From Bacteroidales bacterium (GTDB taxonomy: Bacteria > Bacteroidota > Bacteroidia > Bacteroidales > VadinHA17): 64,000 bases of DNA. The translations under genes were made by a program, and so were the position numbers. Shown here piece after piece: positions 8,650 to 57,524 of the stretch. Each line of letters starts with the position of its first letter. Positions within the stretch are counted from its first letter, which is position 1. The stretch spans positions 6,705 to 70,704 of the forward strand of contig DATKZO010000013.1 in NCBI GenBank assembly GCA_035527935.1, written 5' to 3'. The notes under the pieces were generated by a model. It was not told the origin of the DNA. It saw nothing but the letters and a program-made list of their open reading frames with translations, and did no database searches.

Positions 8650-8658
8650 CAAAAAAAC

Positions 8659-8867: not shown

Positions 8868-8880
8868 TGAGAATCAAAGT

Positions 8881-8905
8881 GTTAGAGCGATCTAACTCTT
8901 TTTTT
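8881..8905 (+). terminator. Third terminator-like hairpin with a GCGA loop
   Basis: The hairpin is gttaga-gcga-tctaac followed by tc+T7. Confidence 0.5.
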
Positions 8906-9071
8906 ATTTTGTCTAAGGTGAAACATAGGTGAAACAATCAAAGATTTTTCCTTTATATACCTGGTAGTGAAACGCCCATCTAATGCCTTAACGCGCTTCA
9001 AATTTGTTTATTAATGCAATACCGTTGAATCTCTCATTCCCTACCCTTTCATCCCATTTCACTCTATTTCC

Positions 9072-9410
9072 TTATATTGCTGATATACAATTAGTTGCAA
9101 TATGATGTAATATTGTAAAATGCCTGTAAATCTGATAGCACCCTTCAAAGTACTTCATTATAGCCTCTGCTGCCCTGAACATAGGGTCTGCTAAACTACA
9201 TATCATGATCTCCTGACCTGGTATGTAACCTAATTTTGATTCAACCTGGTTATATTCAAACTTACTGACAAACTTAGGTTCCCTGTACTCATAGCTGAAT
9301 GAATAACCATTACGATAGTCCATAAGGAAATACTCATATTTCTGAAGTAGTAATCTTTGATTTAAGGTTAGTCTGTTTTTAATCCATATTGATATACATC
9401 CTCCATCCAT
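9072..9410 (-). CDS. Hypothetical protein (112 aa) in an AT-rich, gene-poor stretch
   Basis: ORF only, with no motif recognised. Confidence 0.25.
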   Translation of the reverse strand: MDGGCISIWIKNRLTLNQRLLLQKYEYFLMDYRNGYSFSYEYREPKFVSKFEYNQVESKLGYIPGQEIMICSLADPMFRAAEAIMKYFEGCYQIYRHFTILHHIATNCISAI

Positions 9411-9674
9411 AGTTGTAAGGCTAATATTAATTAGATGTTCTCTTTATTGAGTAACAACGAATCGTCTAACTGAGTACTCAAATCAATAATAAGTTGTATC
9501 TGTGACAAATGGACCACCCTTATTAGTCGACTTACAGGATATTGGATATCCATCATCATCGTATTCATAAATAACAGAATGAAGGGTACCAGTTCGTTCA
9601 TGAATAGTGATTGGATTATTTGGAGATAGAACAAACTATAAAGGGCCTTTTTATATACTCAAGCTCCAAACATC

Positions 9675-10568
9675 TTAAGAAGAAGGGTGGTCAGGAACCC
9701 TCTCAGCAACCTTTGCTCCCCATTGTTTCAAGTTCTCAAGAACAAACGCAACTATTTTCTGTTGTTCCTCCCTGCCGTTACCCGTTACCTCCATGAGTTC
9801 ACCGAACTTTATATTCACCGGGATAGACCTGTCAAATGGTCCTAGATCCTTAATCAGCTTACCGTTCTTCCAGAAGTCGGTTCGGATGGCCATCGGAACA
9901 ATCCTCTTCCCGCTCCTGGAGGCCAGTTTTACTCCCAGACTGTTAAACTCATCCGGGTTGAAATACTCACGCCTGGTACTCTGTGGGAAAATTACAATTG
10001 ATGTTCCATTTGCCAGTTTCTCAGTTCCTTCACTGATCACTTTAACAAGATCTTCCCTTGAGTTTGCACGAGAAACAACAATTGGATCCCTTGAACGCAT
10101 AGTGGGACTAAATAACGGCATCGAAACCAGACTTTCCTTTACAACAAATGTAACATCCATAAAAGGAGCAATCAATACAGGGAAGATCATTGTTTCGAGG
10201 GTGCTCATATGGTTGCTGATGAAGATTACCGGTTCGTCAAGGTGACGGATGTTGTCAAAGCCTGTAATGTGAAAAACGGCTCCGCATCTCTCGAGTAGCC
10301 TCATAATATCTATTGAGGCCCTGGCCCATTCATTTGCATCCATTTTATCAGATAATGCAATTCGCCTGGAACGAAGGATAATGCTTAAAAATTTTATTAT
10401 AAAATATGCCCTGCCACCTGTAAAGAGGTTAAAACTTCTTCCCGCTAATTGACCAGGATCAGTGTGATATTCAGATTCAGAAAAATATTGAGTCCTCAAT
10501 TTGCTTCTGTGCTGTTGATTAATACTCAAAGTTATATCATTTGTCTGACTAGTATTGAAATGACTCAT
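9675..10568 (-). CDS. 1-acyl-sn-glycerol-3-phosphate / lysophospholipid acyltransferase family protein
   Basis: 'ISNHMSTLE' fits an HX4(D/E) block. 'IVIFPQSTR' fits an FP(E/Q)GTR-like block. Confidence 0.75.
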   Translation of the reverse strand: MSHFNTSQTNDITLSINQQHRSKLRTQYFSESEYHTDPGQLAGRSFNLFTGGRAYFIIKFLSIILRSRRIALSDKMDANEWARASIDIMRLLERCGAVFHITGFDNIRHLDEPVIFISNHMSTLETMIFPVLIAPFMDVTFVVKESLVSMPLFSPTMRSRDPIVVSRANSREDLVKVISEGTEKLANGTSIVIFPQSTRREYFNPDEFNSLGVKLASRSGKRIVPMAIRTDFWKNGKLIKDLGPFDRSIPVNIKFGELMEVTGNGREEQQKIVAFVLENLKQWGAKVAERVPDHPSS

Positions 10569-14052: not shown

Positions 14053-14122
14053 AAATCAATCTTCAACTTCGGGATCAAAGGTATAACAAAATATATTATT
14101 AAAAGGGTAAAATATGTTAAAT

Positions 14123-15940
14123 CTAATGCATTATCGGTATAATCCGGCGTGGCGGGTCTTTATAATAATTGTCGAGATCAGGGATCAGATCGCCGTTGCT
14201 ATCTGTCATATTCCTGAAAAATTCAACAAGGGCAATCCACTCTTTACCTTCCTGCACTCCGGACAAATCAGCATTAAAATCCAGAATAGCATCTGACATA
14301 TTCTCAATCTCAATACCGGATGACTCTTTGGGAACAACATTAACCAATCCAAATGTTGTCTTTTTTATTATTCCAACAAACTCAAGCATATAAGCATTCG
14401 CGGTAATCGAGTAAAGAGTCTCATTTCCCTTTGACAGATCAACTGGCACAGTAGTGCCGTCAGCTTTAACCAGATTGATCGACTTTACCTTCCGCAACAG
14501 TCCTTTCCCCGGGTCAAAGTCTACCATTATCCCTGCGAAATAGCAATAATTCGAAGGAGCCGACTTATAGGCCACAAGAAGGACCTCCAGGATCCGATTG
14601 AGCTCAATACCTGTAACCCAAATCCTTGAAAGAGGATACCCTGGAATATTATCTTTCCCTGATCCTAACGACATCATCCTGAAAACATCCTGAACCGTAA
14701 GCTGACCAGGAACCACCCTGTCACGGATCACACCAGCCGCCACCATACTAACATCTGTTCCCAAGGCTACATTGTTGTTAACGTAATTATGGATTGCATC
14801 CACAACCAGGGGTCCCAGATTGCTGTTCTCAAGATCGCCGCCATACTCATCGCAAACAAGTTCATACGACGACTCCACAATTACACTATCAATATTATAG
14901 TTAAGAGGATTGAGCAGCTGATCAGATATAAGCTCTTTCTGATTATCGATCCGTGACTGTATTAACGGGTCTCCTGTTACCGAATCATCTACCGGTATAA
15001 GATTATAGGCTGATAATTTAATCTCATCGCCATTGATATCCAGCTCAACTCTCCCGACAAACATGCCATTGCAGCCAGCCTGGACTACCGGTACACCCTT
15101 AATAATGATCGGTTCGCTAATCTTTGTATGAGTGTGCGCGCTGATCACCAGGTCAAGTCCCCTTACCTTTTTTGCCAGCTTAACATCTTCTCCTGCCCAT
15201 TCACCCTTTTTGTTCTTCTCTAATCCGCTGTGCGACAAGCAGATTATTACATCAGCACCCGATTTATTCAACTTTCTTACCATTCGTCTGGCAGCTCTGA
15301 CCTGCCTGGAGAATTTTACAGGCGGCGCAAATGGTGCAACTTCGTCAGCATCGATACCCATAAGCGAAAAAATACCAACCTTGTGTCCCTGTTTTTCAAT
15401 AATTACTGACCTGGTTATTATGTTGTTATCAAACAATGCTTCGAAGCTATTATCGCCATGATCACCATCATCAAAAAGAGCATTGCCCAAAAGTAGCTTC
15501 GGGATATCCGATGACGAAGATGACCTTTTAATTATCTTGGCCAGAGTACCCGGGCCGTAGTCGAACTCGTGGTTCCCTATGGCAACTACATCATATCCCA
15601 TATCATACATCAACGGCAGCTGGAATCCATTATACTCCTCCATATAATGATAGATGGTCCCCATGAGAAAATCACCGGCATCCAGCACCAGGGTATTCTC
15701 CGGATTCAAAAATCTCTCTTCTTTGATTATACTGGCTATTCTGCTGAACCCTCCGGTAGTATTGTCATCATTGATACTTCCGGGTGTATAATTAATGGAT
15801 GGTGCAAATCCATCCAGCCTGGAGTGCATATCATTAGTGTGCAGGATTACTAATTTGGTGCCGTATTGTGCTATCGCCGGCACCATCGTTAAATTTACCA
15901 GAACGCCCACCAACAGGGTCCCGAATTTTCGATACGACAT
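14123..15940 (-). CDS. Bifunctional metallophosphatase / 5'-nucleotidase family protein (secreted)
   Basis: 'ILHTNDMHSRL', 'DAGDF' and 'GNHEFD' are present, along with an N-terminal signal peptide and a C-terminal 5'-nucleotidase-like half. Confidence 0.85.
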   Translation of the reverse strand: MSYRKFGTLLVGVLVNLTMVPAIAQYGTKLVILHTNDMHSRLDGFAPSINYTPGSINDDNTTGGFSRIASIIKEERFLNPENTLVLDAGDFLMGTIYHYMEEYNGFQLPLMYDMGYDVVAIGNHEFDYGPGTLAKIIKRSSSSSDIPKLLLGNALFDDGDHGDNSFEALFDNNIITRSVIIEKQGHKVGIFSLMGIDADEVAPFAPPVKFSRQVRAARRMVRKLNKSGADVIICLSHSGLEKNKKGEWAGEDVKLAKKVRGLDLVISAHTHTKISEPIIIKGVPVVQAGCNGMFVGRVELDINGDEIKLSAYNLIPVDDSVTGDPLIQSRIDNQKELISDQLLNPLNYNIDSVIVESSYELVCDEYGGDLENSNLGPLVVDAIHNYVNNNVALGTDVSMVAAGVIRDRVVPGQLTVQDVFRMMSLGSGKDNIPGYPLSRIWVTGIELNRILEVLLVAYKSAPSNYCYFAGIMVDFDPGKGLLRKVKSINLVKADGTTVPVDLSKGNETLYSITANAYMLEFVGIIKKTTFGLVNVVPKESSGIEIENMSDAILDFNADLSGVQEGKEWIALVEFFRNMTDSNGDLIPDLDNYYKDPPRRIIPIMH

Positions 15941-33891: not shown

Positions 33892-34257
33892 ATGGAAAAG
33901 AAAACTCTTGTTTTAGGTGCCAGCGATAATCCAAGCCGATTTGCATACAAGGCAATAAGGAGTCTGCAAAGAAGAGATATTCCGATAGTTGCCATAGGGA
34001 GAAAGGATATTGACCTTAACGGAATAAAAATTCGTAAGGGCAAGCCCGCTGACGTGAAAGGGATACATACAGTTTCACTCTATATGAATTCTTCCCTCCA
34101 GAGAGAATATTATGATTATATTCTCTCTTTGAATCCCAGTAGGATTATTTTCAACCCGGGAACCAGGAATCCTGAGCTTGCTGAAATTGCTATTGGTCGA
34201 GGCATTGAGGCAGTTGATGATTGTATGCTTGTAATGCTCAATACCGGAAGATTCTAA
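33892..34257 (+). CDS. CoA-binding domain protein (YccU-like)
   Basis: 'LVLGASDNPSRFAYKA' is a Rossmann-like N-terminus. The protein is ~120 aa. Confidence 0.65.
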   Translation: MEKKTLVLGASDNPSRFAYKAIRSLQRRDIPIVAIGRKDIDLNGIKIRKGKPADVKGIHTVSLYMNSSLQREYYDYILSLNPSRIIFNPGTRNPELAEIAIGRGIEAVDDCMLVMLNTGRF

Positions 34258-34311: not shown

Positions 34312-36321
34312 CTATTCAAAGAGCCTGTCAATCAGCTGGTCGTCTGCAATATAAGGCAATGTGATTTTCAGTTCCACAGTCCTTTCCATCTCTCTTCTGG
34401 CGGTAAAGATTGCTTCATTGTTCCTGGCCCAGCTTCTGCGCGCAATACCATTATTAACATCCCAGTGAAGCATCATTTCCAATCTTCTTTCAGCCTCTTT
34501 CGACCCATCAAGCAGCATACCAAATCCTCCGTTTATCACCTCGCCCCATCCAACTCCGCCACCATTGTGTATCGACACCCAGGTTGCCCCTCTGAAGGAG
34601 TCTCCAATTACATTCTGTATAGCCATATCGGCTGTAAAGCTTGATCCATCATAAATATTCGATGTCTCTCTGAATGGCGAATCTGTTCCTGATACATCAT
34701 GATGATCGCGGCCAATTACCACCGGCGCCGTGATATGTCCGGAGGCAGTGGCATCATTGAATGCCCTGGCGATCTTTATCCTTCCTTCAGCGTCAGCATA
34801 AAGGATACGGGCCTGTGATCCTACCACCAGTCTGTTCTTCCCTGCTTCCCTGATCCAATGAATATTATCAGCCATCTGCTGCCTTATCTGAGGCGGAGCT
34901 GTTTTCATTATATCCTCAAGAACCGATGCAGCTATCTTATCTGTTCTGACAAGATCTTCAGGGTCATTTGAACAGCAAATCCACCTGAAAGGCCCGAACC
35001 CGTAGTCAAAGCACATAGGCCCCATAATATCCTGGACGTATGACGGATATTTGAATTCGCCCTTTTCGTTCAGAATATCGGCACCTGCCCTTGACGACTC
35101 CAGGAGAAAAGCATTCCCATAATCAAAGAAGTAGGTTCCCATACGGGTGTGCCTGTTAATGGCATTAACCTGCCTTCGAAGCGACTCCCTGACATGTTCC
35201 CTGAATATGTCAGGTTCCTCTGCCATCATCCTGTTTGACTCCCCGAATGAGAGATCAACCGGATAATAACCCCCGGACCAGGGATTATGGAGAGAGGTCT
35301 GATCGGATCCGATATCAACACGAATTCCTTCATTGGCAAATTTCTCCCAAACTTCAACTATATTGCCCTGATAGGCTATTGATGTCACTTTTTTATCCTT
35401 AACTGCTTCCCTTACCCTTTTCACCAATTGATCAGGATCAACCAGCACCTCATCGACCCATCCCTGGCTGTGTCTTGTTTCTATTGCTTTCGGGTTTACT
35501 TCAGCAATAACCGATACCAACCCGGCAATATTTCCGGCTTTTGACTGTGCCCCCGACATCCCTCCTAGTCCGGAAGAAACAAAAAGCTTACCTTTTGTAT
35601 CGGCAGACCCCTTGGAAATCAACCTCATAGCATTGAGAATAGTGATAGTTGTGCCATGAACAATACCCTGAGGGCCGATATACATATATGATCCGGCTGT
35701 CATCTGACCATACTGGCTTACGCCCAGTGCATTAAATTTTTCCCAATGATCCTGTGATGAGTAATTCGGGATAACCATCCCGTTGGTTACAACCACCCGA
35801 GGCGCGTCATTGTGCGATGGGAATAGCCCAAGAGGATGACCTGAGTATACTACAAGTGTCTGCTCATCAGTCATCTCTGCCAGATATTTCATGGTTAACC
35901 TGAACTGGGCCCAATTCTGGAATACTGCACCATTACCCCCATAGGTTATAAGTTCATGTGGATGTTGTGCCACTGCTTTATCAAGATTGTTGCATATCAT
36001 CAGCATAATGGCAGCTGCCTGCCTCGACCGGTAAGGAAATTCATCAATATGCCTTGCTTTGATATCAATGCAGGGCATAAACCGGTACATATAAATCCGC
36101 CCATACTTTTCCAGCTCCTGTGCAAATTCTTTAGCCAGCTCCTGGTGGAATCGCTCAGGGAAGTAGCGGAGTGCATTTTTCACTGCAAGCCGTTTCTCCT
36201 CAATCGTTAATATATCTTTACGTCTCGGCGCATGATTTATTTTATCATCCCTGGGGTTAGATGAAGGCAACTCTTCGGGAATTCCTTCAAGTATTACTCT
36301 TTTAAACTCACTGACAATCAT
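34312..36321 (-). CDS. hutU: Urocanate hydratase
   Basis: The length and the motifs 'GGMSGAQ' and 'HDVSGTDSPFRETSN' fit urocanase. The start is set at MIVSEF (ATG 36321). The track ORF starts at a TTG inside the promoter box. Confidence 0.95.
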   Translation of the reverse strand: MIVSEFKRVILEGIPEELPSSNPRDDKINHAPRRKDILTIEEKRLAVKNALRYFPERFHQELAKEFAQELEKYGRIYMYRFMPCIDIKARHIDEFPYRSRQAAAIMLMICNNLDKAVAQHPHELITYGGNGAVFQNWAQFRLTMKYLAEMTDEQTLVVYSGHPLGLFPSHNDAPRVVVTNGMVIPNYSSQDHWEKFNALGVSQYGQMTAGSYMYIGPQGIVHGTTITILNAMRLISKGSADTKGKLFVSSGLGGMSGAQSKAGNIAGLVSVIAEVNPKAIETRHSQGWVDEVLVDPDQLVKRVREAVKDKKVTSIAYQGNIVEVWEKFANEGIRVDIGSDQTSLHNPWSGGYYPVDLSFGESNRMMAEEPDIFREHVRESLRRQVNAINRHTRMGTYFFDYGNAFLLESSRAGADILNEKGEFKYPSYVQDIMGPMCFDYGFGPFRWICCSNDPEDLVRTDKIAASVLEDIMKTAPPQIRQQMADNIHWIREAGKNRLVVGSQARILYADAEGRIKIARAFNDATASGHITAPVVIGRDHHDVSGTDSPFRETSNIYDGSSFTADMAIQNVIGDSFRGATWVSIHNGGGVGWGEVINGGFGMLLDGSKEAERRLEMMLHWDVNNGIARRSWARNNEAIFTARREMERTVELKITLPYIADDQLIDRLFE

Positions 36322-36351
36322 TTCCTTACATTTTATCACATGTACAGGATA

Positions 36352-36359
36352 CAAAGATA
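36352..36359 (-). promoter_or_regulatory. -7 box, TATCTTTG on the minus strand, upstream of hutU
   Basis: It matches TAnnTTTG and lies 31 nt upstream of the ATG at 36321. Confidence 0.35.
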
Positions 36360-36450
36360 AATATTTTTTCTCTTACCCTGGTTTAGGATTGTCTTCAGCA
36401 GATAATTAAATAATTACAGTATTAATTTATAGTATTATTTCACGTGAATA

Positions 36451-36482
36451 TGGCTGCTGAAGTCCCGGCATGACAGCAGCCA
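36451..36482. other. 9-bp stem hairpin, tggctgctg-(14 nt)-cagcagcca
   Basis: Read directly. It lies 25 nt upstream of GC-rich repeat copy 1. Confidence 0.6.
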
Positions 36483-36506
36483 GTTTTAATAATAAAGGCT
36501 TCTGCT

Positions 36507-36623
36507 ATTGAAGCTCCCCGCCGCAAGCAGCGGGGAACAGGGTTTACAAGCTCGGCGACTTCGTCGGATGTAGCCCCGATGAACCGGTGCGAAGTTGAAG
36601 CCAATGCACTAGCCGGGACTCAG
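36507..36623 (+). repeat. GC-rich structured intergenic repeat, copy 1
   Basis: The sequence attgaagctccccgccgcaagcagcggggaacagggtttacaagctcggcgacttc... matches 45330-45385 at 49 of 56 positions by hand alignment. Weaker similarity continues (ccccgatgaacc / cacccgatcaaacc; gccgggactc / tccggactc). Confidence 0.8.
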
Positions 36624-36894
36624 AATTTTCATGATTTACAAACAAAATGACATCTTTTGGAACCTTCGAAAAAAAGCCTGCCTGTTCATAATTCAATAAC
36701 ATATTGTATAACAGATACATAGTCTGTTGAAATATTTTTTTTTCAGAAGTAAAACACATTTAAAAAATGCATATAATTGCACTGTTATTTGAGAATTAAA
36801 ATGGGCCTTTACGACACGCTGTAATAATCAGAGAAACAAAGAATTATGTTACACTTAAAAAACAGAAAAAAAATTATCGACAGACCAATTAAAA

Positions 36895-38184
36895 ATGAAA
36901 CCCGCAAAAAAGAATGTTTGGAACTCTGCTTCAGATGAAGCGGAAGTCCAGGAACCTCCACTCCCTCACAGTGGAACAGCTGAGGCTGAGGTAAAACTGC
37001 ATAATCACCCGGCCCCGGGCCAGGTAAGGCAGGCATTCATCAGGAGACATTTCCCTGGCACCAGTCAGGACGACTGGAACAACTGGCAATGGCAACTCCG
37101 GAACAGTTTCAAATCGATCAAAGACCTTTCCACTTTCCTAAACCTTTCACAGGATGAACTGGCGGTCACCGAGAAGAACATTAATCTTCCGGTAAGAGTC
37201 ACTCCCTATTATGCAAGCCTGTTAAGCAGGTTTAATCCTGATCACCCTCTGAGAAAAACAGTAGTCCCGGTAATGGATGAACTGATCCTTTCTGACGGTG
37301 AATCAGCTGACCCACTTGGCGAGACACACGATAGTGTTGCCAGATGTCTTGTTCACAGGTATCCCGACAGGGTACTGTTTCTTGTATCTGATTTCTGCGG
37401 CGCCTATTGCAGGTATTGCACCAGGTCACATATGGTTGCCAAGGAAAAGGGCACTGTAGTCAGGAAGCAGGACTGGAACCTTGCAATCGACTATATCAGA
37501 AACCACTCTGAAGTGAGGGATGTCATCCTCTCGGGTGGTGATCCGCTTACACTATCGGATAATCTACTGGAGTACCTTCTTTCAGGATTGAGATCAATAC
37601 CACATCTTGAAATAATAAGGATCGGTACCAAGGTACCTGCCGTATTACCGCAACGCATAACACCATCCCTTGTCAATATGCTCAGAAAATACCATCCCAT
37701 CTTCATGAGCCTGCATTTTACCCATCCCGATGAGATGACTCCTGAGACACAGAGGGCATGCAACATGCTCGCTGATGCGGGGATACCTCTCGGCAGCCAG
37801 ACTGTATTGCTGAAAGGAATAAATGACAACACGGAAACCTTTAAAAAACTTTTTCACCAACTGCTGAAAGTCAGGGTTAAGCCATACTATATCTACCAGT
37901 GCGATCCGATTCCCGGTTCACGGCATTTCAGGACACCGGTTCAGAAAGGCCTTGAGATCATTCGTGGTTTAAGGGGCTTCACCTCTGGTTATGCCATACC
38001 CCATTATGTAATTGATGCACCTGGTGGAGGAGGAAAAATACCAATTCTGCCTGAATATGTCATCGGGCATAATGAAAAAGGCCTCTTACTCCGGAACTTT
38101 GAGGGTAAGGAATATGTTTATCCTGACCACGGTGAAGGCACTGCCGGCTTTTCCCATGGCGTAAGGAACCATGATGCATACTGA
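36895..38184 (+). CDS. KamA-family radical-SAM/PLP lysine 2,3-aminomutase
   Basis: 'CGAYCRYCTRS' is the CX3CX2C motif. 'IDAPGGGGKIP' is the PLP-lysine motif. 'WNNWQWQLRNS' is an N-terminal hallmark of the family. Confidence 0.85.
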   Translation: MKPAKKNVWNSASDEAEVQEPPLPHSGTAEAEVKLHNHPAPGQVRQAFIRRHFPGTSQDDWNNWQWQLRNSFKSIKDLSTFLNLSQDELAVTEKNINLPVRVTPYYASLLSRFNPDHPLRKTVVPVMDELILSDGESADPLGETHDSVARCLVHRYPDRVLFLVSDFCGAYCRYCTRSHMVAKEKGTVVRKQDWNLAIDYIRNHSEVRDVILSGGDPLTLSDNLLEYLLSGLRSIPHLEIIRIGTKVPAVLPQRITPSLVNMLRKYHPIFMSLHFTHPDEMTPETQRACNMLADAGIPLGSQTVLLKGINDNTETFKKLFHQLLKVRVKPYYIYQCDPIPGSRHFRTPVQKGLEIIRGLRGFTSGYAIPHYVIDAPGGGGKIPILPEYVIGHNEKGLLLRNFEGKEYVYPDHGEGTAGFSHGVRNHDAY

Positions 38185-38220
38185 GATCCCTGTTTTCAAA
38201 CAAGTTTGTAAAACAGCACT

Positions 38221-39966
38221 ATGTTCCGTATCAGAAGAATACTGAGCGACCGGTCTGAGGCAGACCGGAATGCAATCGGGCAAGCCAGGGAGATACTTAA
38301 GAGCCAGTTCCCTGACCTGGATAAGGCAAAACTGGATCTCATGCCCGACCAGCTGCGTGACTCACTTAAATTCAGGTTTCAGACATCACTTTTCGTTGCT
38401 GAAAGCAGGTCGGGTATTATACAGGGTTTTGCTTTGCTGATGTATGCACCTGATATGAATTTTACCTATCTGGATTTTGTTGCATCAAGGAGAGCCAGTG
38501 TCTCTGGTGGGATTGGAGGTGCATTATATCAGAGAATCAGGGAAGAGTCGCTTCATCTGGGCGTGAAAGGACTTTTTTTCGAATGCCTTCCCGATGACCC
38601 TGCTATTTGCAGGAACAGTGAACTACTGGAGCAGAACAGGGCCAGACTGAAATTCTATGAGAGGCTTGGAGCATTTCCTCTTTTCAACACCTTGTATGAG
38701 ACCTCTGTTTATGATGATGACGACTGCCCGCCATACCTGGTTTGCGATTTTCTCGGAAGCAAGGAAACAATCGATAAAGAATCAATGCAGTCAGTTATCA
38801 GAGCTATTCTTGAGAGAAAATATGGTGACTATTGCCCGGCAGAGTATGTTGATAGAATTGTCGGTTCGGTCACTGATGACCCGGTCGTTCTGAGAAAACC
38901 CGTTTATATTAAAGCTGCCAGCCTGAAGAACAACAGCAGAGAAAATGATGACATCAGGAACAAGATCTTCCTGGTGGTAAACGATCAGCATTCAATCCAC
39001 CATGTACAGGATCGGGGTTATGTAGAGTCGCCGGTAAGGATTGATTCCATACTTAAAGAACTGGACCCTACAGGAATGTATGTAAAATTTTCTCCCAGGA
39101 AGTATCCTGACCTGCACCTTTATGATATTCACGACAGGGGGTACTTAAGGTATTTTAAACGTGTATGCGAATCAATGGAGGAGGGTAAATCGATCTACCC
39201 CTATGTTTTTCCCATAAGGAATGCTTCGCGACCGCCAGAAGATGATTCAGTCCTGGCAGGGTACTATTGTATAGATACATTCACGCCCTTAAATCTAAAT
39301 GCCTACAAGGCGGCGAGGCGTGCCGTCGATTGCGCTCTGACATGTGCCGACAGTCTGCTCGACGGATATATGATCGCTTACTCTCTTGTAAGGCCACCCG
39401 GGCATCATGCTGAGACCAGGGTATTCGGAGGATTTTGTTATTTCAATTCAAACGCGATAGCAGCAAATTATCTTACCCGCTACGGCAGGGTTGCCATTCT
39501 TGATATTGACTATCACCATGGTAACGGTCAGCAGGAAATATTTTACGAACGTGCTGATGTCCTGACTGTTTCTATCCATGGACATCCTTCTTTTGCCTAT
39601 CCCTACTTCAGTGGTTACAGGGATGAGAAGGGATCAGGGCTTGGACATGGATTTAATATCAATATGCCGCTCAAGGAGAAGATAAGTAGTGAGGAATACA
39701 GAAATGTGCTGGCACAAGCCCTGAAAGCAATCGAAAGGTTCTCGCCTGACTACCTTGTTGTTGCACTGGGACTTGATACTGCAAAAAATGATCCCACCGG
39801 GACATGGAGCTTTGTGGCCAATGACTTCAGGGAGAATGGTAAAATGATCGGACATCTTGGTTACCCCACCCTGGTGGTACAGGAAGGTGGTTACAGACAC
39901 AGGGTCCTGGGCATAAATGCAAAAAATTTCTTTAGTGGGTTACATTCTGGATTATATAATAAATGA
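38221..39966 (+). CDS. Fusion protein with an N-terminal GNAT-like domain and a C-terminal histone-deacetylase/acetylpolyamine amidohydrolase-family domain
   Basis: The N-terminal domain has 'VASRRASVSGGIGGALYQRI', a GNAT motif-A-like segment. The C-terminal domain has 'VRPPGHHA', 'ILDIDYHHGNGQQEIF', 'ALGLDTAKNDP' and 'VQEGGY'. Confidence 0.8.
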   Translation: MFRIRRILSDRSEADRNAIGQAREILKSQFPDLDKAKLDLMPDQLRDSLKFRFQTSLFVAESRSGIIQGFALLMYAPDMNFTYLDFVASRRASVSGGIGGALYQRIREESLHLGVKGLFFECLPDDPAICRNSELLEQNRARLKFYERLGAFPLFNTLYETSVYDDDDCPPYLVCDFLGSKETIDKESMQSVIRAILERKYGDYCPAEYVDRIVGSVTDDPVVLRKPVYIKAASLKNNSRENDDIRNKIFLVVNDQHSIHHVQDRGYVESPVRIDSILKELDPTGMYVKFSPRKYPDLHLYDIHDRGYLRYFKRVCESMEEGKSIYPYVFPIRNASRPPEDDSVLAGYYCIDTFTPLNLNAYKAARRAVDCALTCADSLLDGYMIAYSLVRPPGHHAETRVFGGFCYFNSNAIAANYLTRYGRVAILDIDYHHGNGQQEIFYERADVLTVSIHGHPSFAYPYFSGYRDEKGSGLGHGFNINMPLKEKISSEEYRNVLAQALKAIERFSPDYLVVALGLDTAKNDPTGTWSFVANDFRENGKMIGHLGYPTLVVQEGGYRHRVLGINAKNFFSGLHSGLYNK

Positions 39967-40940
39967 TAAGAGTAGGATTAACATACGATTTGAGGTCGGA
40001 ATACCTCAGGATGGGGTTCAGCGAGGAAGAAACGGCTGAGTTTGACAGGGATGATACGATAGAGGCCATTGAGAAGACCCTTCAGCATTTAGGATATGCC
40101 ACTGACCGTATAGGTAACGTAAAACAACTGGCAGAAGCACTTGTCAAAGGGAAAAGGTGGGATATTGTATTCAATATTTGCGAAGGCATGTACGGTATAG
40201 GCCGTGAAGCGCAGGTGCCTGCATTGCTCGATGCATGGAATATCCCCTATGTCTTCTCAAACCCATTAGTCCTTTCATTGACTCTTCATAAAGCTATGAC
40301 AAAGAGTGTAATACGGGACTCAGGCCTTGCAACAGCCGATTTTTGTGTAATATCAAAGCCAGAGGATATTGAAAAGGTTAGCATTCCCTTTCCCCTGTTT
40401 GCCAAACCTGTTTCTGAAGGAACCGGTAAAGGTATCGATGCCCGGTCGGTTATAACAGGAGCCAGGCAATTGAGAAATATCTGCCTCGACCTGCTCAGCA
40501 GGTTTAACCAGCCAGTCCTGGTGGAGAAGTACCTCAGCGGAAGAGAATTTACTGTAGGCCTGGTTGGTACCGGAGAGAGTGCCAGGGCTACCGGGACAAT
40601 GGAGATAGTCCTCAATGAAAGAGCAGAGAAAAATGTCTACTCATATGTCAACAAGGAGGAATGTGAGGAACTCGTTAAGTACAGAAGGGCCGGGCAGGAA
40701 ATTGTCGGACAGTGCGAACAGCTTGCACTTTCGGTTTGGCAAACCCTGGGATGTGAAGATGCTGGAAGGATCGATATCAGGTGTGATGATAACGGGCTGC
40801 CAAACTTTATGGAGGTAAATCCGCTTGCCGGACTCCATCCTGAACATTCCGACCTGCCAATACTTTCGACACTAAATGGAATATCCTACATAGAGCTTGT
40901 TTCAATGATAATGGAATCAGCAATAAAAAAGATAGTTTAA
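39963..40940 (+). CDS. D-Ala-D-Ala-ligase-like ATP-grasp ligase (paralog 1)
   Basis: 'LFAKPVSEGTGKGI', 'VEKYLSGREFTVGLVG' and 'FMEVNPLAGL' are present. The start makes an ATGA overlap with the upstream stop. Confidence 0.8.
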   Translation: MIRVGLTYDLRSEYLRMGFSEEETAEFDRDDTIEAIEKTLQHLGYATDRIGNVKQLAEALVKGKRWDIVFNICEGMYGIGREAQVPALLDAWNIPYVFSNPLVLSLTLHKAMTKSVIRDSGLATADFCVISKPEDIEKVSIPFPLFAKPVSEGTGKGIDARSVITGARQLRNICLDLLSRFNQPVLVEKYLSGREFTVGLVGTGESARATGTMEIVLNERAEKNVYSYVNKEECEELVKYRRAGQEIVGQCEQLALSVWQTLGCEDAGRIDIRCDDNGLPNFMEVNPLAGLHPEHSDLPILSTLNGISYIELVSMIMESAIKKIV

Positions 40941-40952
40941 AAAAGTCTCGGG

Positions 40953-41921
40953 ATGAAGCGGGTTTTGGTTTTGATAAATGAGCTGTCTGATACACCCTCT
41001 CCTGATGAGCAGGATGTGCTTGACCAGGCGAATATTGTTGAGGAGACCCTTGTAAATTTGGGGTATGATACAGTGAGGAGTTATATGGGACTCGATCTTG
41101 CAAAGACCAGGAGAAATATTGTCGACTCAGGAGCTGATATTGTTTTCAACCTTGTTGAAAGTATAGACAACAAGGCAGAGCTGATACACCTGCCCCCTGC
41201 CCTCCTGCAAAGCATGAGAGTACCATTTACCGGATCCGGGGCTGAGGCAATGTTCCTGACATCAAATAAACAGGTTGCAAAAAGTATCATGTTATCCAAT
41301 GGAATAGCCACTCCAAAATGGTACAGAGCGAGCGATTCATGGCAGGCAAGCAACAACAGGAAATATATTGTCAAACCGGTTTTCGAGGATGCCTCCGTCG
41401 GGATTGATGACAACAGTGTTTTCAACGGAAAAGAACCGGAAAAGCTGGTGGAGTATGGATTAAGGTTCGGCAAAAATTTCTTTGTAGAGGAGTTTATAGA
41501 GGGGCGCGAATTCAACCTTTCAATAATCGCCGGAGATGATGGTCCGTCAGTGCTTCCTCCTGCAGAGATCATATTTACCAATTATCCGAAAGGTAAACCT
41601 AATATAGTTGGATACCAGGCAAAATGGGAGGTATCTTCATTTGAATACCTGAATACGCCCCGTACTTTTGATTTTAATGAGGAAGAGGCAGGTCTCCTGG
41701 ATAAATTGAGGGATATTACTGTAAAATGCTGGAACCTGTTTGATCTAAAGGGATACGCCCGTGTTGATTTCAGGGTCGATGGGGATGGTAAGCCGTATGT
41801 TCTTGAGGTAAATGCAAACCCATGCATTTCGTCCGACTCAGGGTTCTATGCTGCAACCCAAAAGGCAGAGATCCCATTTAGCGAGGTAATTGAAAAAATC
41901 CTGAATGATTGCGACAGATGA
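40953..41921 (+). CDS. D-Ala-D-Ala-ligase-like ATP-grasp ligase (paralog 2)
   Basis: 'YIVKPVFEDASVGI', 'VEEFIEGREFNLSII' and 'VLEVNANPCIS' are present. It starts 12 nt after paralog 1. Confidence 0.8.
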   Translation: MKRVLVLINELSDTPSPDEQDVLDQANIVEETLVNLGYDTVRSYMGLDLAKTRRNIVDSGADIVFNLVESIDNKAELIHLPPALLQSMRVPFTGSGAEAMFLTSNKQVAKSIMLSNGIATPKWYRASDSWQASNNRKYIVKPVFEDASVGIDDNSVFNGKEPEKLVEYGLRFGKNFFVEEFIEGREFNLSIIAGDDGPSVLPPAEIIFTNYPKGKPNIVGYQAKWEVSSFEYLNTPRTFDFNEEEAGLLDKLRDITVKCWNLFDLKGYARVDFRVDGDGKPYVLEVNANPCISSDSGFYAATQKAEIPFSEVIEKILNDCDR

Positions 41922-42406
41922 ATAATGAAGATATAAAGATACGCACTGAAGTGAGACCCGGGGACCGGTCGGCAGTTGAAAAAATTGTAACATCAACCGG
42001 TTTTTTCAGGAGTGATGAGATCAAAGTGGCAGTTGAACTTATAGAGGAAAAGTTGACACAGGGAGATGGTAGTGGTTATGAATTTGTGTTTGCAGAGATT
42101 GGCGACCAGGTTGCTGCATATGTCTGTTTCGGACTTATACCCTGCTCCCTGATCAGTTATGACCTGTACTGGATTGCGACTGACAAGGATTACCAGAAAA
42201 AGGGGCTGGGAAAGCTACTCCTGGAAAAAACAGAAGATATTGTAAGGGCCGGCGGAGGAAAGGCAATCTATATTGAGACATCATCCAGGCCTTTATATGA
42301 ACCAACCCGCGTATTCTACCTCAGAAACGGTTACCAGCTGAAAGCCCGGCTTGAGGATTTTTATGACATCAGTGATGATAAACTGATCTTTTTCAAGAGA
42401 CTATAA
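41918..42406 (+). CDS. Small GNAT-family N-acetyltransferase
   Basis: 'DKDYQKKGLGKLLLEK' is motif A. The ATG at 41918 makes an ATGA overlap with the upstream stop. The track ORF starts at a TTG 9 nt earlier. Confidence 0.8.
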   Translation: MNNEDIKIRTEVRPGDRSAVEKIVTSTGFFRSDEIKVAVELIEEKLTQGDGSGYEFVFAEIGDQVAAYVCFGLIPCSLISYDLYWIATDKDYQKKGLGKLLLEKTEDIVRAGGGKAIYIETSSRPLYEPTRVFYLRNGYQLKARLEDFYDISDDKLIFFKRL

Positions 42407-45195: not shown

Positions 45196-45329
45196 GGTAA
45201 AAGATATTTGTGTTGATAAAAAGAGATCGCAGGTATGAAAATAATTAAATAAACGATAGAAAACTTATTATGGTTGTAATAAACACTTCCACAACAACTA
45301 TTCTCTCACCACCTTAATTTATGAAAAGT

Positions 45330-45424
45330 ATTGAAGCTCCTCACTGCAAGCAGCGGGGAACCGAGTTTACGAGCTCAGCGACTTCTAATTACCGGCACCC
45401 GATCAAACCATCTCCGGACTCGTT
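45330..45424 (+). repeat. GC-rich structured intergenic repeat, copy 2
   Basis: See copy 1. The hairpin 5' arm is degraded here (cctcac instead of ccccgc). Confidence 0.8.
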
Positions 45425-45588: not shown

Positions 45589-46593
45589 ATGAAAAAGCTT
45601 TTATTGAATTTTATTCTTTTATCCATAATTCACCTATCTGCTATGTCTCAATATTTCATTACAACTGAAAGGAAAATCAAGGCATCTATTGTGAGGAACA
45701 ATTCAGAAGGGCCTGAATATATGTACAATGGGGGTCTTCTTGACCTCCTGGAACGGGAAGATTGTGTTGTTGGGCCTTCAGATATCGCGGCATTGACTGA
45801 TGAAGAGGACCATCTCTACGGAGATTGGCGAAGGGCTGCTCTCGAAAGCAGGCACATTGGCAGCATTGTATCTCAGAGCCAGCATAACGAATTCTTTACT
45901 ATAGGTTTGCTCCGGAACTGTTCCGATCTACTGGGAATGCTGGCCGGTCTCCAGAATATGAAGTCTTCTTTAACCACAGGAATTGGTGACTCCAGGGACC
46001 TGCAGGGATCAGGCCTTGCCGGGGAAAAGCCTCTCAGGGTTGGTCTGGTGTGGATTGATGCCCATGCTGATTTCAATACGCCTGAAACCACTTTGAGCGG
46101 GATGCTGGGAGGTATGCCTGTTGCCATGGCCTCCGGTATCTGTTTAACGCGTCTCAGGCTTACTGCAGGCCTTGATCCTGCCCTCCCTACAAAATATATC
46201 ACCATGACATGCCTGAGGGATGTCGATCCCCTTGAGCAGGATCTGCTCGACAGGTCACAATGTGAATACATTTCAGTAGGAGATGTCAGGAATCTGTCTG
46301 AAAATATTAATGATCAGATAGAGAGATTGTGCAACCTGACTGATATCGTATATGTTCATATTGACATGGATGTTCTTGATCCGGCAGAGGTGTCAGGTCA
46401 TCCTCTTACGGCACCGGAAGGACCCTCTAGCAGGGAACTGGCCGCAGCTCTTGAGATTATGTTCACCCATGAAAAGGTTAACGCAATAGGTATTGCCTCA
46501 ATACCATACGGCCAACGGGATCCAAATGGGGAATCACTTGCTGCAGCTTACAGATTAATAGAAGGCGCAATCAAGGGACTGAAGTCGCGGTAG
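45589..46593 (+). CDS. Arginase/ureohydrolase-fold protein with an N-terminal signal peptide
   Basis: 'VWIDAHADFNTPE' and 'VHIDMDVLDP' are metal-binding motifs. The N-terminus is MKKLLLNFILLSIIHLSAMSQ. Confidence 0.7.
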   Translation: MKKLLLNFILLSIIHLSAMSQYFITTERKIKASIVRNNSEGPEYMYNGGLLDLLEREDCVVGPSDIAALTDEEDHLYGDWRRAALESRHIGSIVSQSQHNEFFTIGLLRNCSDLLGMLAGLQNMKSSLTTGIGDSRDLQGSGLAGEKPLRVGLVWIDAHADFNTPETTLSGMLGGMPVAMASGICLTRLRLTAGLDPALPTKYITMTCLRDVDPLEQDLLDRSQCEYISVGDVRNLSENINDQIERLCNLTDIVYVHIDMDVLDPAEVSGHPLTAPEGPSSRELAAALEIMFTHEKVNAIGIASIPYGQRDPNGESLAAAYRLIEGAIKGLKSR

Positions 46594-54332: not shown

Positions 54333-57300
54333 ATGAAAAAGGTTTACACACTTTTACTGTTTGTCCTGGTATCACTTTTTATGATCAAAGGTACTGCATA
54401 TACACAGGTACCTGATGGATTTAATTACCAGGGTGTTGCACGTGATAACTCAGGGAATCCTATCATAAACTCCTCCCTTACTGTAAGGGTGGCAGTTATT
54501 TCTCAAATCACTCCGGAGGTAGTGGAATGGGAAGAGGAACATAGCGTGACAACAAACTCTTATGGTCTGTTCACACTTATGATTGGGGATCCGGACGCAA
54601 CTGGTATTGGTGGATCTGCCAATTCAATAGGAGACATTGACTGGGCTGGAAAAACCCTCTATATCAGAACTAGTGTCAGGTACAACAGTACATGGTACGA
54701 TATGGATGCGGCAAGGATTCTGGCTGTACCGTATGCTCTTTTGGCTAAAGATGTTCAATCCAGGACACTGGAGGTAAATGCCGATACAGTATTCAGGGTT
54801 GAGGGCAGCCTTGCACTTGGAACCGACTCTCCACAGGGAGCCAAACTTGCCGTTGTCAGTACCAATGATGCTTCGGAAGATGCCCTGTTTGAGGTGAGGC
54901 GACAGGATGGTCAGCCGGTATTTTCCGTATATAACACCGGTGTGAAGGTATTTGTCGACGATATTGGCACCAAGGGGCCAAAAGGAGGTTTTGCCATTGG
55001 TGGTTTTGATGCAGCTAAAGGATCTCAGGATTACCTGATAATATCTCCTGATAGTATAAGAATGTTTATTAAGAACACTTCTGCAGTTCCGGGTAAGGGT
55101 GCAGGAAGTAAAGGAGGTTTTGCCATTGGTGGTTTTGACGATTCAAAAGCCGGGTTGACAGATCTCTACTTCAATGTTTCAGGCAAGGATGCCATGGATG
55201 TTTACGAAAACACTTCGCAAGTGCTGTGGTACCCAAGGAAAGAGGCTTTTCTGTCTGGGAATATAAGGATCGGCTCTCCTGACTCTGTTGGGACCAACTC
55301 CACCGCAATGGGATTTAAGCCGGTCGCCATGGGAAACTACTCTCAGGCTTTCGGTTATAAGACACTCGCACTTGCTGACAATTCAACTGCAATTGGTAAC
55401 AGGGCCCAGGCCAGCGGAATTGATTCCTATGCTTTTGGTTCGGGAGCGATTGCAAGCGGTCAGAAATCATTTGCATTCGGTTCAATCGGGATTGACGAGG
55501 CAGGAAATCCCCTGGGCATATCAACCCTGGCATCCGGCGACTACTCTATAGCATTGGGCATGGGGGCGCAGGCAACAACAATAGGAGCCATGGCTCTGGG
55601 AGTCAACTCACTTGCATCCGGTTATGCTTCTTCTGCCATGGGCTTTTACAGTCAGGCTACTAAAAAATATTCAGTTGCAATAGGATACTATGCAATGGCA
55701 CAGGGTGATTATGCAAATGCTTTTGGCCGTAGTGCCCAGGCAAATGGAGTTAGTTCAACAGCCGTAGGTTATGCAACCCTCGCCTCAGGAAGTGCTGCTG
55801 CTTCATTTGGACGCAGCGCTGTTGCCGGCGGTACTGCCTCATTAAGCCTTGGATACTCCAGCGATGCCCTGAACACATATTCAGTTGCAATAGGATTTGA
55901 TGCACAGTCGTCGGGAGAGTATTCCTCATCCATGGGATACATGGCAAATGCCTCGGGTAACTACTCAACCGCAATAGGTCATACTGCAATCGCCAATAAA
56001 GAGAATTCCTACTCGATTGGCAAGAATGCTCAGTCAACAGGAATAAATGCCTTTGCTCTGGGCATTGACGCCGTTGCTTCGGGAGGTACATCACTGAGCA
56101 TGGGTTATTCGAGCAGTGCAGGTGGCAGTTACTCACTGGCCATAGGAAACAGTAACAACTCATCATCAACCAACTCAATTTCTCTGGGAAATTCAAATAC
56201 ATCAAGCAACACCAATTCGATTGCAATAGGAAATAATAATACGGCCTCAGGTGTTTACTCTACTGCTTTGGGATATGCATCCAGTGCCAGCGGATACAGG
56301 AGTGTAGCCATCGGTTCAAATTATTATAAAAGCAGCCTTATTATCATTATCCCGACATTACCGACATTACCGACATTACCGTTAATACCGATTTTACCAA
56401 AAGGAGACACCGAGCTTCCTGCTGATGGCAAGGGATGGATAATCCTGCCTCCCTCTATTAACAGGGATAACCAGGCAATCGGAGATTATTCCATTGCAGT
56501 TGGTGCCGGCAACTATTCTACTAATGGTGGTATGGCTTTCGGAGTTTACAACAATGCTGAAGATGTGTATGCAACAGCCATAGGATTTGGGAACCATGCA
56601 CTGGGCAAGTATTCACTTGCTGCCGGATTTGCAAACCAGACCAATGGAATGTACTCAGTGGCCTTTGGCACCTACACAACAGCTGAGGCTATGAACTCAT
56701 TTGTAATCGGGAAATACAATTATACTTCTTCAGCCTATGATCCTGATGACTGGGTGGAAACCAACCCTCTTTTCGTAATTGGCAACGGTACTTCGTCATC
56801 AAGCCCAAATGATGCCATGATAGTATATAAGAACGGATACACATACCATGAAGCCAGAGATGCATATGCCGGGATTTACGCCTACAATTATATATCAGGC
56901 AGAACTTCTTCATCATATGGAATTAAGTCATATGCTTACGGTACAACAGCTGCCTATGTATACAGTGGTCATTTCACAGGAGGAAATTCAGTAAACCCAG
57001 TATATTATATGGGATTATGGGCTGACAAAAGATCGGGTGCCTTGACAGATGTTGCTGAATATATATATGATACAAATGGTAACACAGAAGCCGGGGATGT
57101 CATTGTTGCCGACCCGAATTTAAAGGAAAGTGTTATCCTGTCAGGTAAGCCCTACCAGGAGTCTGTTCTCGGAGTTGTGTCAACTGACCCTCATCTTACA
57201 ATGGGAATGGATCTTGTAACAGATGAGGAAACCGGAGATGCCCTGCCGGGTGTAAAAGCTACAAAACTGGCCCTTACAGGCCGTGTACCGGTTAAAGTGA

Positions 57301-57524
57301 CAGATGAGAACGGGCCAATCAAACCTGGCGATATGCTCACCTCATCATCAACACCAGGCCATGCTATGAAATGGTCACTTCTTGACATTACAAAGGCAAA
57401 AGACTTTGATGAGCTCAAGAAAATGATTGCCGAGAATGACAGGCGCCGTAACGCAGTTATAGGGAAAGCCGTTGATGAGCATTTAAGCGGCACTGGCAGG
57501 ATCATAGCACTTATTTCATTATAA
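54333..57524 (+). CDS. Large secreted repeat protein with YadA-head (Hep/Hag)-like repeats and an uncharacterised C-terminal domain
   Basis: It has a signal peptide. From about aa 320 to 760 there are dozens of repeats of the type 'NSTAIGxxAxASGxxSxAxG'. A 'PTLPTLPTLPLIPILP' linker is present. The C-terminal ~170 aa is non-repetitive. Confidence 0.7.
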   Translation: MKKVYTLLLFVLVSLFMIKGTAYTQVPDGFNYQGVARDNSGNPIINSSLTVRVAVISQITPEVVEWEEEHSVTTNSYGLFTLMIGDPDATGIGGSANSIGDIDWAGKTLYIRTSVRYNSTWYDMDAARILAVPYALLAKDVQSRTLEVNADTVFRVEGSLALGTDSPQGAKLAVVSTNDASEDALFEVRRQDGQPVFSVYNTGVKVFVDDIGTKGPKGGFAIGGFDAAKGSQDYLIISPDSIRMFIKNTSAVPGKGAGSKGGFAIGGFDDSKAGLTDLYFNVSGKDAMDVYENTSQVLWYPRKEAFLSGNIRIGSPDSVGTNSTAMGFKPVAMGNYSQAFGYKTLALADNSTAIGNRAQASGIDSYAFGSGAIASGQKSFAFGSIGIDEAGNPLGISTLASGDYSIALGMGAQATTIGAMALGVNSLASGYASSAMGFYSQATKKYSVAIGYYAMAQGDYANAFGRSAQANGVSSTAVGYATLASGSAAASFGRSAVAGGTASLSLGYSSDALNTYSVAIGFDAQSSGEYSSSMGYMANASGNYSTAIGHTAIANKENSYSIGKNAQSTGINAFALGIDAVASGGTSLSMGYSSSAGGSYSLAIGNSNNSSSTNSISLGNSNTSSNTNSIAIGNNNTASGVYSTALGYASSASGYRSVAIGSNYYKSSLIIIIPTLPTLPTLPLIPILPKGDTELPADGKGWIILPPSINRDNQAIGDYSIAVGAGNYSTNGGMAFGVYNNAEDVYATAIGFGNHALGKYSLAAGFANQTNGMYSVAFGTYTTAEAMNSFVIGKYNYTSSAYDPDDWVETNPLFVIGNGTSSSSPNDAMIVYKNGYTYHEARDAYAGIYAYNYISGRTSSSYGIKSYAYGTTAAYVYSGHFTGGNSVNPVYYMGLWADKRSGALTDVAEYIYDTNGNTEAGDVIVADPNLKESVILSGKPYQESVLGVVSTDPHLTMGMDLVTDEETGDALPGVKATKLALTGRVPVKVTDENGPIKPGDMLTSSSTPGHAMKWSLLDITKAKDFDELKKMIAENDRRRNAVIGKAVDEHLSGTGRIIALISL
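56352..56396 (+). repeat. In-frame 9-nt tandem repeat CCGNNNTTA, three perfect copies (ccgacatta) and two degenerate
   Basis: Read directly: ccgacatta x3, then ccgttaata and ccgatttta. It encodes PTL-PTL-PTL-PLI-PIL. Confidence 0.9.

Follow-up and report, generated by a model that had tools for sequence, protein, structure and literature searches.

The window analysed here, a 64,000-nt stretch of contig DATKZO010000013.1 from a Bacteroidales bacterium, contains at positions 36895-42406 of the forward strand five genes coding for a KamA-family aminomutase, a fusion of a GNAT acetyltransferase with a zinc deacetylase (GH), two ATP-grasp ligases (AG1 and AG2), and a second, small GNAT. The genes form a real operon, common to anaerobic bacteria of many phyla, and belong to known enzyme families combined in an undescribed, widely conserved pathway. 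In our estimate, the chances are about even that this is a self-contained, horizontally mobile operon for a small beta-lysine amide or peptide, with one or more amino groups that are reversibly acetylated. The domain identities, the conserved residues and intact active sites, the linkage across phyla, and the gene fusions are established directly, whereas the product, the substrates, and the sequence of the acetylation steps are inferred.

The genes, their junctions, and their motifs were re-read from the translations of the open reading frames (ORFs). The KamA gene (36895-38184, 429 aa) is preceded by a 540-bp intergenic region and followed, after a gap of 36 nt, by the GH gene (38221-39966, 581 aa), which shares an ATGA overlap with AG1 (39963-40940, 325 aa). 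A 12-nt gap separates AG1 from AG2 (40953-41921, 322 aa), and another ATGA overlap joins AG2 to the small GNAT gene (41918-42406, 162 aa), for which an alternative TTG start is present at 41909. This layout of five co-oriented genes, given in a preliminary description of the sequence, is confirmed by the coordinates. All the motifs quoted there are found in the translations as well: CGAYCRYC and DAPGGGGK in KamA, RPPGHHA, DIDYHHGNG, GLD and EGGY in GH, FMEVNP and VLEVNANP in the two ligases, and QKKGLG in the small GNAT.

The gene neighbourhood was surveyed from two sides, with GH in a collection of species-representative genomes (at least 594 matches, of which the best 80 loci were inspected) and with AG1 in a metagenome collection (at least 592 matches). 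Linkage was counted in the loci with at least 6 kb of flanking sequence on both sides (36 for GH and 21 for AG1). The best 80 GH loci belong to Bacteroidota, Desulfobacterota, Dehalococcoidia, KSB1, Calditrichota, Nitrospirota, Pseudomonadota, Myxococcota, and others, and the identity of GH across these phyla is still 55-60%. On the GH side, all five genes are present in 22 of the 36 loci, GH is alone in 12, and it is accompanied by the small GNAT in two. On the AG1 side, KamA is adjacent in 21/21 loci, AG2 in 20/21, the small GNAT in 17/21, and GH in 8/21. AG1 always lies directly 5' of AG2. At least six gene orders occur across all loci, namely KamA-GH-AG1-AG2-GNAT, KamA-AG1-AG2-GH-GNAT, KamA-AG1-AG2-GNAT-GH, GH-AG1-AG2-GNAT-KamA, AG1-AG2-GNAT-KamA-GH, and a divergent arrangement.

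Since the same genes are found together in dozens of unrelated genomes, their linkage is not a matter of chance. The conserved unit is a KamA-AG1-AG2 core, usually with the small GNAT, and GH is a frequent, separable accessory. Co-conservation in related genomes, on which the preliminary description depended, is thus observed in many phyla, where the gene order varies and some of the genes are fused. Its five-gene unit stands in part: the genes do recur together, but GH is found beside the core in only about 40% of the AG1 loci (8/21).

When all the ORFs of ~120 related loci were clustered, no other recurrent neighbour was found, a transporter included, with two exceptions: some Desulfobacterota have a gene for a sigma-54 activator, and Dehalococcoidia one for a small winged helix-turn-helix protein. 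Genes for efp, rps or carrier proteins do not recur beside the module in these loci. The classical partners of KamA (AblB, EpmA, KamDE, Kdd, Kce, and Kal) had been reported as absent from the locus, and none of them is present among the five operon genes and the 40 other window ORFs of at least 150 aa; the same set contains no tRNA-synthetase-like or elongation factor P (EF-P) domain. The lysine fermentation cluster places a B12-dependent 5,6-aminomutase and downstream genes beside kamA. None of its genes (kamDE, kdd, kce, kal) was found in the scanned window ORFs, and none recurs in the ~120 related loci.

The distribution and the neighbours bear on the idea of a secreted or toxic secondary metabolite, i.e. 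a beta-lysine antimetabolite or antibiotic against which acetylation and deacetylation would provide self-resistance. Beta-lysine is part of streptothricin, viomycin, and negamycin, clusters of this type include ATP-grasp ligases, and the acetylation of beta-lysine amines by GNATs is a known resistance route. However, no exporter, nonribosomal peptide synthetase, tailoring enzyme or immunity gene is linked to the module, which is widespread and uniform (at least 590 matches in each of the two collections), unlike antibiotic clusters with their patchy distribution. Of the explanations considered here, this one has the smallest probability.

Active sites of the encoded proteins

KamA (Pfam LAM_C and Radical_SAM, with CGAYCRYC and DAPGGGGK at residues 168 and 374, respectively) passes the KamA-family model TIGR00238 with 350 bits (cut-off 199). 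The closest NCBIfam model is AblA (TIGR03820), although the score of 468 bits is below the cut-off of 525.4; three other KamA proteins of the module reach 447-488 bits with this model. The scores are also below the cut-offs for glutamate 2,3-aminomutase (TIGR04368, 416 and 650 bits, respectively), arginine 2,3-aminomutase (396 and 600 bits), and EpmB (TIGR03821, 252 and 369.3 bits); by the last of these KamA is not an EpmB, in agreement with the preliminary description. The protein aligns with lysine 2,3-aminomutase (LAM) of Clostridium subterminale (PDB 2A5H) over residues 53-412 (E 2.5e-128) and lacks the last ~50 residues of LAM. The residues C168, C172, C175, R177, D337, D374, and K381 correspond to C125, C129, C132, R134, D293, D330, and K337 of LAM, and the cluster cysteines and the equivalents of R134, D293, D330, and K337 are unchanged in 67 of the 67 module KamA proteins collected.

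In LAM, Asp293 and Asp330 bind the epsilon-ammonium group of lysine, Arg134 binds the carboxylate, and Lys337 is the lysine that carries pyridoxal phosphate (PLP). In glutamate 2,3-aminomutase, Lys and Asn stand in for Asp293 and Asp330. As the equivalents of both aspartates are kept, the conversion of L-lysine to beta-lysine is the best-supported reaction, and KamA is predicted to be a radical-SAM/PLP amino acid 2,3-aminomutase acting in this way. The identity of glutamate 2,3-aminomutase was rejected, the score being below the cut-off and both aspartates being retained.

Both ligases match the Pfam domain Dala_Dala_lig_C (E 1.7e-23 for AG1 and 4.6e-23 for AG2), and their matches among solved structures are Ddl/Van proteins only, with ~20-30% identity. 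The scores of 143 bits (AG1) and 118 bits (AG2) compare with a Ddl cut-off of 243 (NF002378) and are below every Ddl/Van cut-off. The residues were compared by aligning E. coli DdlB (its sequence checked against PDB 1IOV and 2DLN) with 119 AG1 and 89 AG2 sequences. The lysines that bind ATP, the hinge Glu, the Asp/Glu/Asn ligands of Mg, and the catalytic Arg (equivalents of DdlB K97, K144, E180, E187, K215, R255, D257, E270, and N272) are shared by at least 95% of the AG1 and of the AG2 sequences, and most of these residues by all. The D-alanine residues of Ddl are the Glu15-Ser150-Tyr216 triad and, at the D-Ala2 site, Ser281/Leu282. With respect to DdlB, in AG1 S150 is replaced by T154, Y216 by E232, H63 by E74 (invariant), and L282 by D297. 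In AG2 the corresponding changes are S150 to A147, Y216 to W225 (invariant), and G276 to C, with G297 at the D-Ala2 site. Further acidic residues conserved in AG1 are D9, E26, D28, E82, and D266. The AF2 model of AG1, from a prediction run with library proteins, has a pLDDT of 94.6, and its top 50 Foldseek matches are all Ddl (TM 0.7-0.83).

AG1 and AG2 are expected to be catalytically competent amide ligases of the Ddl fold, each forming one amide bond via an acyl-phosphate. A true Ddl identity was rejected, as both scores are under the cut-offs and the D-Ala triad is altered; the preliminary description, which would have failed with bona fide Ddl enzymes, is upheld in this respect. The acid-rich pocket of AG1 would suit a cationic substrate, and AG1 is probably the first enzyme to take up beta-lysine.

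Fusions are found between consecutive members of the core. KamA and AG1 are joined in a single 786-aa ORF (locus L111) and in a 746-aa representative protein (P0263). AG1 and AG2 are joined in the protein P0241, the C-terminal half of which is 43% identical to AG2 of the window; further representative clusters, 640-730 aa in length, also give a match in two stretches, and one of them, P0242, has two Ddl-type domains. A related family of double ATP-grasp proteins (P0284, P0294, and similar, ~675-700 aa) combines an AG1-like C-terminal domain with a different Ddl-like N-terminal domain, which suggests a wider radiation of paired Ddl-fold ligases.

The small GNAT matches Acetyltransf_1 in Pfam above the cut-off (E 3e-10) and carries QKKGLG as its acetyl-CoA motif A, the general form of which is R/Q-x-x-G-x-G/A; motif A is conserved also in the N-terminal domain of GH. 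The best NCBIfam match is RimI (39.7 bits, under the cut-off), and neither GNAT matches AblB (TIGR03827) at E <=0.01. The protein matches the solved structure PDB 2R7H (E 1.5e-35), which bears the deposition title "putative D-alanine N-acetyltransferase". Environmental contigs encode a protein with 99% identity to 2R7H, and its closest named relatives are those of Oleidesulfovibrio and Desulfovibrio species. By these matches the small GNAT is classed as a predicted RimI-like N-acetyltransferase and an orthologue of 2R7H.

GH consists of an N-terminal GNAT domain (residues ~1-230) and a zinc deacetylase domain (~250-581) that matches Hist_deacetyl in Pfam with E 6e-73. The Pfam match of the N-terminal ~230 residues to GNAT is weak, below the cut-offs, and this domain has no significant match by sequence among solved structures. 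In the full-length AF2 model (mean pLDDT 79.6), however, residues 1-215 show the GNAT topology and order of strands and helices. The best solved relatives of the deacetylase domain are the acetylpolyamine amidohydrolases (APAHs) 9GKZ (E 4e-68), then 6PHR, 3Q9B, and 3MEN, although with an identity of only 33-37%. Foldseek with the model gives the same answer: the top 16 matches are all APAH (E 1e-22 to 1e-20), and protein-lysine deacetylases appear from 4e-16. The residues H395/H396, D428, D430, H432, D519, and Y558 and G97/G99 of the GNAT motif A are invariant in the family, which also has and conserves the stretch that aligns with the polyamine-specificity loop. Among bacterial deacylase clusters, only that of PsApaH (9GKZ) has been shown to remove the acetyl group from N-acetylputrescine, N-acetylcadaverine, and N-acetylspermine, and no GNAT fusion is mentioned in that survey (PMC11532494). 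The deacetylase domain of GH thus appears closest to the acetylpolyamine-amidohydrolase type, a small-molecule enzyme, fused to an intact GNAT; the generic HDAC-type label of the preliminary description should be replaced.

Some relatives of GH or of its deacetylase domain have other neighbours. In locus L040 a divergent KamA-like protein (8445-9974, 509 aa, 30% identity), in which D293 is changed to H and D330 to N, is encoded directly 5' of a GH orthologue, with Usp, AraC, and MscS-like genes nearby, and a comparable divergent KamA-like neighbour of GH is present in L083. This may represent another, distinct combination of an aminomutase with GH. In Desulfuromonas sp. AOP6 (L001) the module is followed by a second, stand-alone HDAC-family gene (14102-15235, 377 aa, no NCBIfam match), beyond which lie genes for an unknown 276-aa protein, a TPR protein, and a CoA_binding_2 protein.

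With the properties of the two acetyltransferases at hand, the module could be read as an ordinary system for N-epsilon-acetyl-beta-lysine as an osmolyte, with KamA as AblA, a GNAT as AblB, the deacetylase for turnover, and the Ddl-like genes unrelated. KamA is indeed nearest to the AblA model, the KamA-like and GH genes of L040 have Usp and MscS-like neighbours, and an MscS gene lies 4 kb downstream of the operon in the window. Nevertheless, AblA identity was rejected, because KamA is below the AblA cut-off and neither GNAT matches AblB. Moreover, no other genes are linked to KamA as tightly as AG1 and AG2 (21/21 and 20/21 loci), and these are fused to it in some genomes. The tight linkage and the apparent difference of the small GNAT from AblB both argue against a plain AblAB pair, and we consider such a system very unlikely.

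A role in protein modification can also be envisaged, in which the ATP-grasp enzymes would attach beta-lysine to a conserved protein, e.g. a translation factor or a ribosomal protein (cf. EpmAB and RimK), and acetylation and deacetylation would be regulatory. The resemblance of the small GNAT to RimI, the strong conservation across phyla (e.g. 55-60% identity for GH), and the existence of KamA relatives that supply the EF-P modification are in its favour. On the other hand, no target gene (efp, rps or carrier protein) recurs in the ~120 loci, KamA is under the EpmB cut-off and nearest to AblA, the deacetylase groups with the small-molecule APAHs and not with protein deacetylases, and the ligases are like Ddl, not like RimK, LysX or TTL. 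Protein modification is therefore regarded as quite improbable.

A predicted route to a beta-lysine amide

The synthesis of a small, reversibly acetylated beta-lysine amide can be outlined in five steps. KamA would convert L-lysine to beta-lysine, as suggested by its intact catalytic and lysine-binding residues. AG1 would use beta-lysine directly and form the first amide bond via an acyl-phosphate, as in Ddl; the direct use is proposed because of the KamA-AG1 fusion and of several conserved acidic residues in the pocket, which are absent from Ddl and would suit a di-cationic substrate. AG2 would then make the second amide bond on the product of AG1, as their fusion and invariant adjacency suggest. 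The small GNAT may N-acetylate the product, or an intermediate, at a free amine, and GH may add and remove an acetyl group on a terminal aliphatic amine, thus controlling charge, turnover or activity, in a manner that would resemble the control of polyamines by acetylation. As the ATP-grasp steps spend ATP, the route would be anabolic, and in view of the lack of a linked exporter the product is probably cytoplasmic.

The likeliest roles of the product are those of an N-acetylated beta-lysine peptide osmolyte, following a logic similar to that of N-acetylglutaminylglutamine amide (NAGGN), or of a polyamine-like cation, and no confident choice can be made between the two. With somewhat less than even confidence, the operon may reveal a new and widespread cytoplasmic metabolite of anaerobes, i.e. 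a di- or tri-amide or a short oligomer based on beta-lysine, with its charge switched by a dedicated pair of acetyltransferase and deacetylase, and with it a new class of osmolytes or polyamine-like cations and a new subfamily of Ddl-fold enzymes for beta-amino acids.

Beta-lysine formation, two ligations, and an acetyl cycle had been proposed in the preliminary description, and this predicted chemistry fits all the evidence. Three outcomes that would have spoken against it had been named beforehand and were checked here: the genes were found to be co-conserved, KamA was not an EpmB, and the ligases were not Ddl enzymes. The overall interpretation is retained with respect to linkage and to these two enzyme identities, but the conserved unit comprises fewer than five genes, and the generic HDAC label has been abandoned.

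Several observations weigh against the proposed route. The habitats given in the record titles are not only saline, which weakens the osmolyte role. The substrate of KamA is deduced from two aspartates, and it might, although less probably, be arginine or a different basic amino acid. GH occurs without the other module genes in 12 of the 36 well-flanked loci, and its pairing with divergent KamA-like proteins in L040 and L083 indicates that it may serve more than one aminomutase product and have a broader role. Finally, to combine an acetyltransferase and a deacetylase in one protein seems futile unless there is regulation.

The two ligases could in principle join beta-lysine into a homo-oligomer or polymer, or make a branched polyamide similar to cyanophycin, serving as a polycation, a polyamine surrogate or a nitrogen reserve, the charge of which would be tuned by the GNATs and the APAH-type domain. 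The highly acidic, conserved pocket of AG1 might point to two cationic substrates, the deacetylase appears to be of the polyamine type, no exporter is linked, and in Desulfobacterota a sigma-54 (NtrC-type) activator is. In contrast, the ligases are nearest to Ddl, a single-turnover dipeptide ligase, and differ from the polymerising RimK, CphA, and TTL; they have neither a primer-binding nor a Mur-like second domain, and the presence of two separate ligases suggests two defined steps. A polymer is thus a possible but unlikely product.

Regulation and surroundings in the window

In the Desulfovibrio versions of the operon, a sigma-54 activator and promoter are dedicated to it. On the environmental contigs with the protein 99% identical to 2R7H, the order is sigma-54 activator, KamA, AG1, AG2, and GNAT, and in Desulfovibrio mangrovi the same order is followed by GH; a sigma-54 promoter (TGGCAT-N5-TTGC) is present in both loci. 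The Desulfovibrio-type regulatory sites lie at 5316-5502 of L164 and 5388-5472 of L166, with the activator gene directly upstream. Along with the sigma-54 promoter they include GGAAC-N5-GTTCC palindromes 5' of KamA, two in L164 and one strict plus one near-palindrome in L166. The called KamA start in L164 is located upstream of the sigma-54 promoter and is, for this reason, probably mis-called.

Sigma-54 sites were seen in the Desulfovibrio loci only, and none was found 5' of KamA in the window, where the 540-bp intergenic region (36355-36894, forward strand) is presumed to contain the operon promoter. Scans for sigma-70 promoters and for terminators across the operon were both at chance level and are thus uninformative on the transcript structure. 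A GC-rich, hairpin-forming repeat of 57 nt is located at 36506-36562, with a fold z-score of only -1.6. It has a second copy, 88% identical, at 45329-45385, 5' of the arginase-family gene, and no copy in the related loci. Neither the upstream region nor the repeat has an Rfam match, be it at the gathering threshold or with E values as high as 5. A riboswitch or leader RNA 5' of KamA was rejected, given the lack of an Rfam match and the second copy in the window, which makes the element a dispersed repeat.

The operon is bordered upstream by a divergent urocanase gene (34312-36354, reverse strand) and downstream by a convergent TonB-dependent receptor gene, neither related to it. An arginase-family (formiminoglutamase-like) gene is present at 45589-46593 (forward strand), so that the histidine-utilisation genes appear to be split around the operon and the receptor gene. 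A CoA_binding_2 gene lies at 33892-34257. Other nearby and unrelated genes code for PorP, PorU, and PorV of the type IX secretion system, IspF, an MscS channel, and a MATE exporter, and they are consistent with an origin of the window from Bacteroidota.

Farther away, a mobile element has probably integrated at 1693-8431, a block of low GC content (33-39%, against ~43% elsewhere) that codes for a tyrosine integrase (7175-8431, reverse strand), for a DUF3987 protein, and for a protein with DUF6371, Zn-ribbon, and DUF6965 domains; the whole window is without tRNA genes. At 54333-57524 a 1063-aa protein of YadA-head repeats, likely a large surface adhesin-like protein, is encoded beside an 846-aa protein with an M14 carboxypeptidase domain.

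Comparison with known systems

In primary metabolism, beta-lysine is known as the precursor of the osmolyte acetyl-beta-lysine, as a modification of EF-P, and as an intermediate of lysine fermentation; it is also found in a few antibiotics. A full-text literature search returned no description of the combination of KamA, AG1, AG2, and GNAT or GH, and in the paper on the Pelobacter genome nothing beyond a plain ablAB pair is mentioned. No described pathway matches the operon, and the statement of the preliminary description that no characterised pathway has such a composition agrees with the literature searched. If the proposed route is correct, it would represent a fourth fate of beta-lysine, in at least ~600 species-level genomes of anaerobes from many phyla, among them organohalide respirers, sulfate reducers, and sediment Bacteroidota. 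It would also add two new substrate classes for Ddl-fold ligases and give a function to a GNAT-deacetylase fusion conserved across phyla and to the orphan structural-genomics entry 2R7H. In uncultured anaerobes, some aspects of salt, nitrogen or polyamine physiology may be due to the operon. The conserved cluster is a strong lead for radical-SAM, ATP-grasp, and osmolyte or polyamine biology, and the availability of tractable genetic hosts among the relatives of Desulfovibrio makes the question directly testable; for D. alaskensis G20, a relative of the 2R7H source strain, a transposon library is available (PMC4045070).

The AblA/AblB system of methanogens and some bacteria shares with the operon a KamA-type mutase (TIGR03820 being the closest model), a GNAT, a cytoplasmic product (a probable one for the operon), and the lack of an exporter. 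It differs in that the operon KamA scores below the AblA cut-off (468 against 525 bits) and is without the C-terminal ~50 residues, neither GNAT matches AblB, and the operon has, in addition, an APAH-type deacetylase and two ATP-grasp ligases in obligatory linkage. The EpmB/EpmA pair resembles the operon in that a short KamA-family enzyme, without the C-terminal domain of LAM, supplies (in the operon, is predicted to supply) beta-lysine for an amide linkage. However, the operon KamA is under the EpmB cut-off, no EpmA or efp is found in the scanned window ORFs or recurs in the related loci, and the ligases are ATP-grasp enzymes instead of LysRS paralogues.

With the Ddl/Van enzymes AG1 and AG2 share the three-domain ATP-grasp fold, at TM values of 0.75-0.83, as well as the ATP and Mg residues and the catalytic Arg, and the same acyl-phosphate mechanism is expected from these retained residues. 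They are, in contrast, far under the cut-offs, with the E15/S150/Y216 triad and the D-Ala2 site replaced, and their genes are linked to KamA and not to mur/ftsQ, and occur also in Dehalococcoidia. GH has its best match, both in sequence and in structure, among the cluster-4 ApaH enzymes (M. ramosa, Pseudomonas, and Marinobacter), with the Zn ligands, the His-His pair, and the Tyr kept. It differs from them in the N-terminal GNAT and in its linkage to a beta-lysine operon instead of polyamine catabolism.

The synthesis of NAGGN employs Ngg, a bifunctional GNAT and ATP-grasp enzyme, together with AsnO, and GshF carries out a two-step ATP-grasp peptide synthesis. The operon would be similar to these systems in the use of a GNAT and one or more ATP-grasp enzymes to make a small N-acetylated peptide as a cytoplasmic solute, and in the fusion of consecutive enzymes. 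What would set the operon apart is the building block, beta-lysine from a radical-SAM mutase, along with the absence of an amidotransferase, a different ATP-grasp subfamily, and the possession of a dedicated deacetylase.

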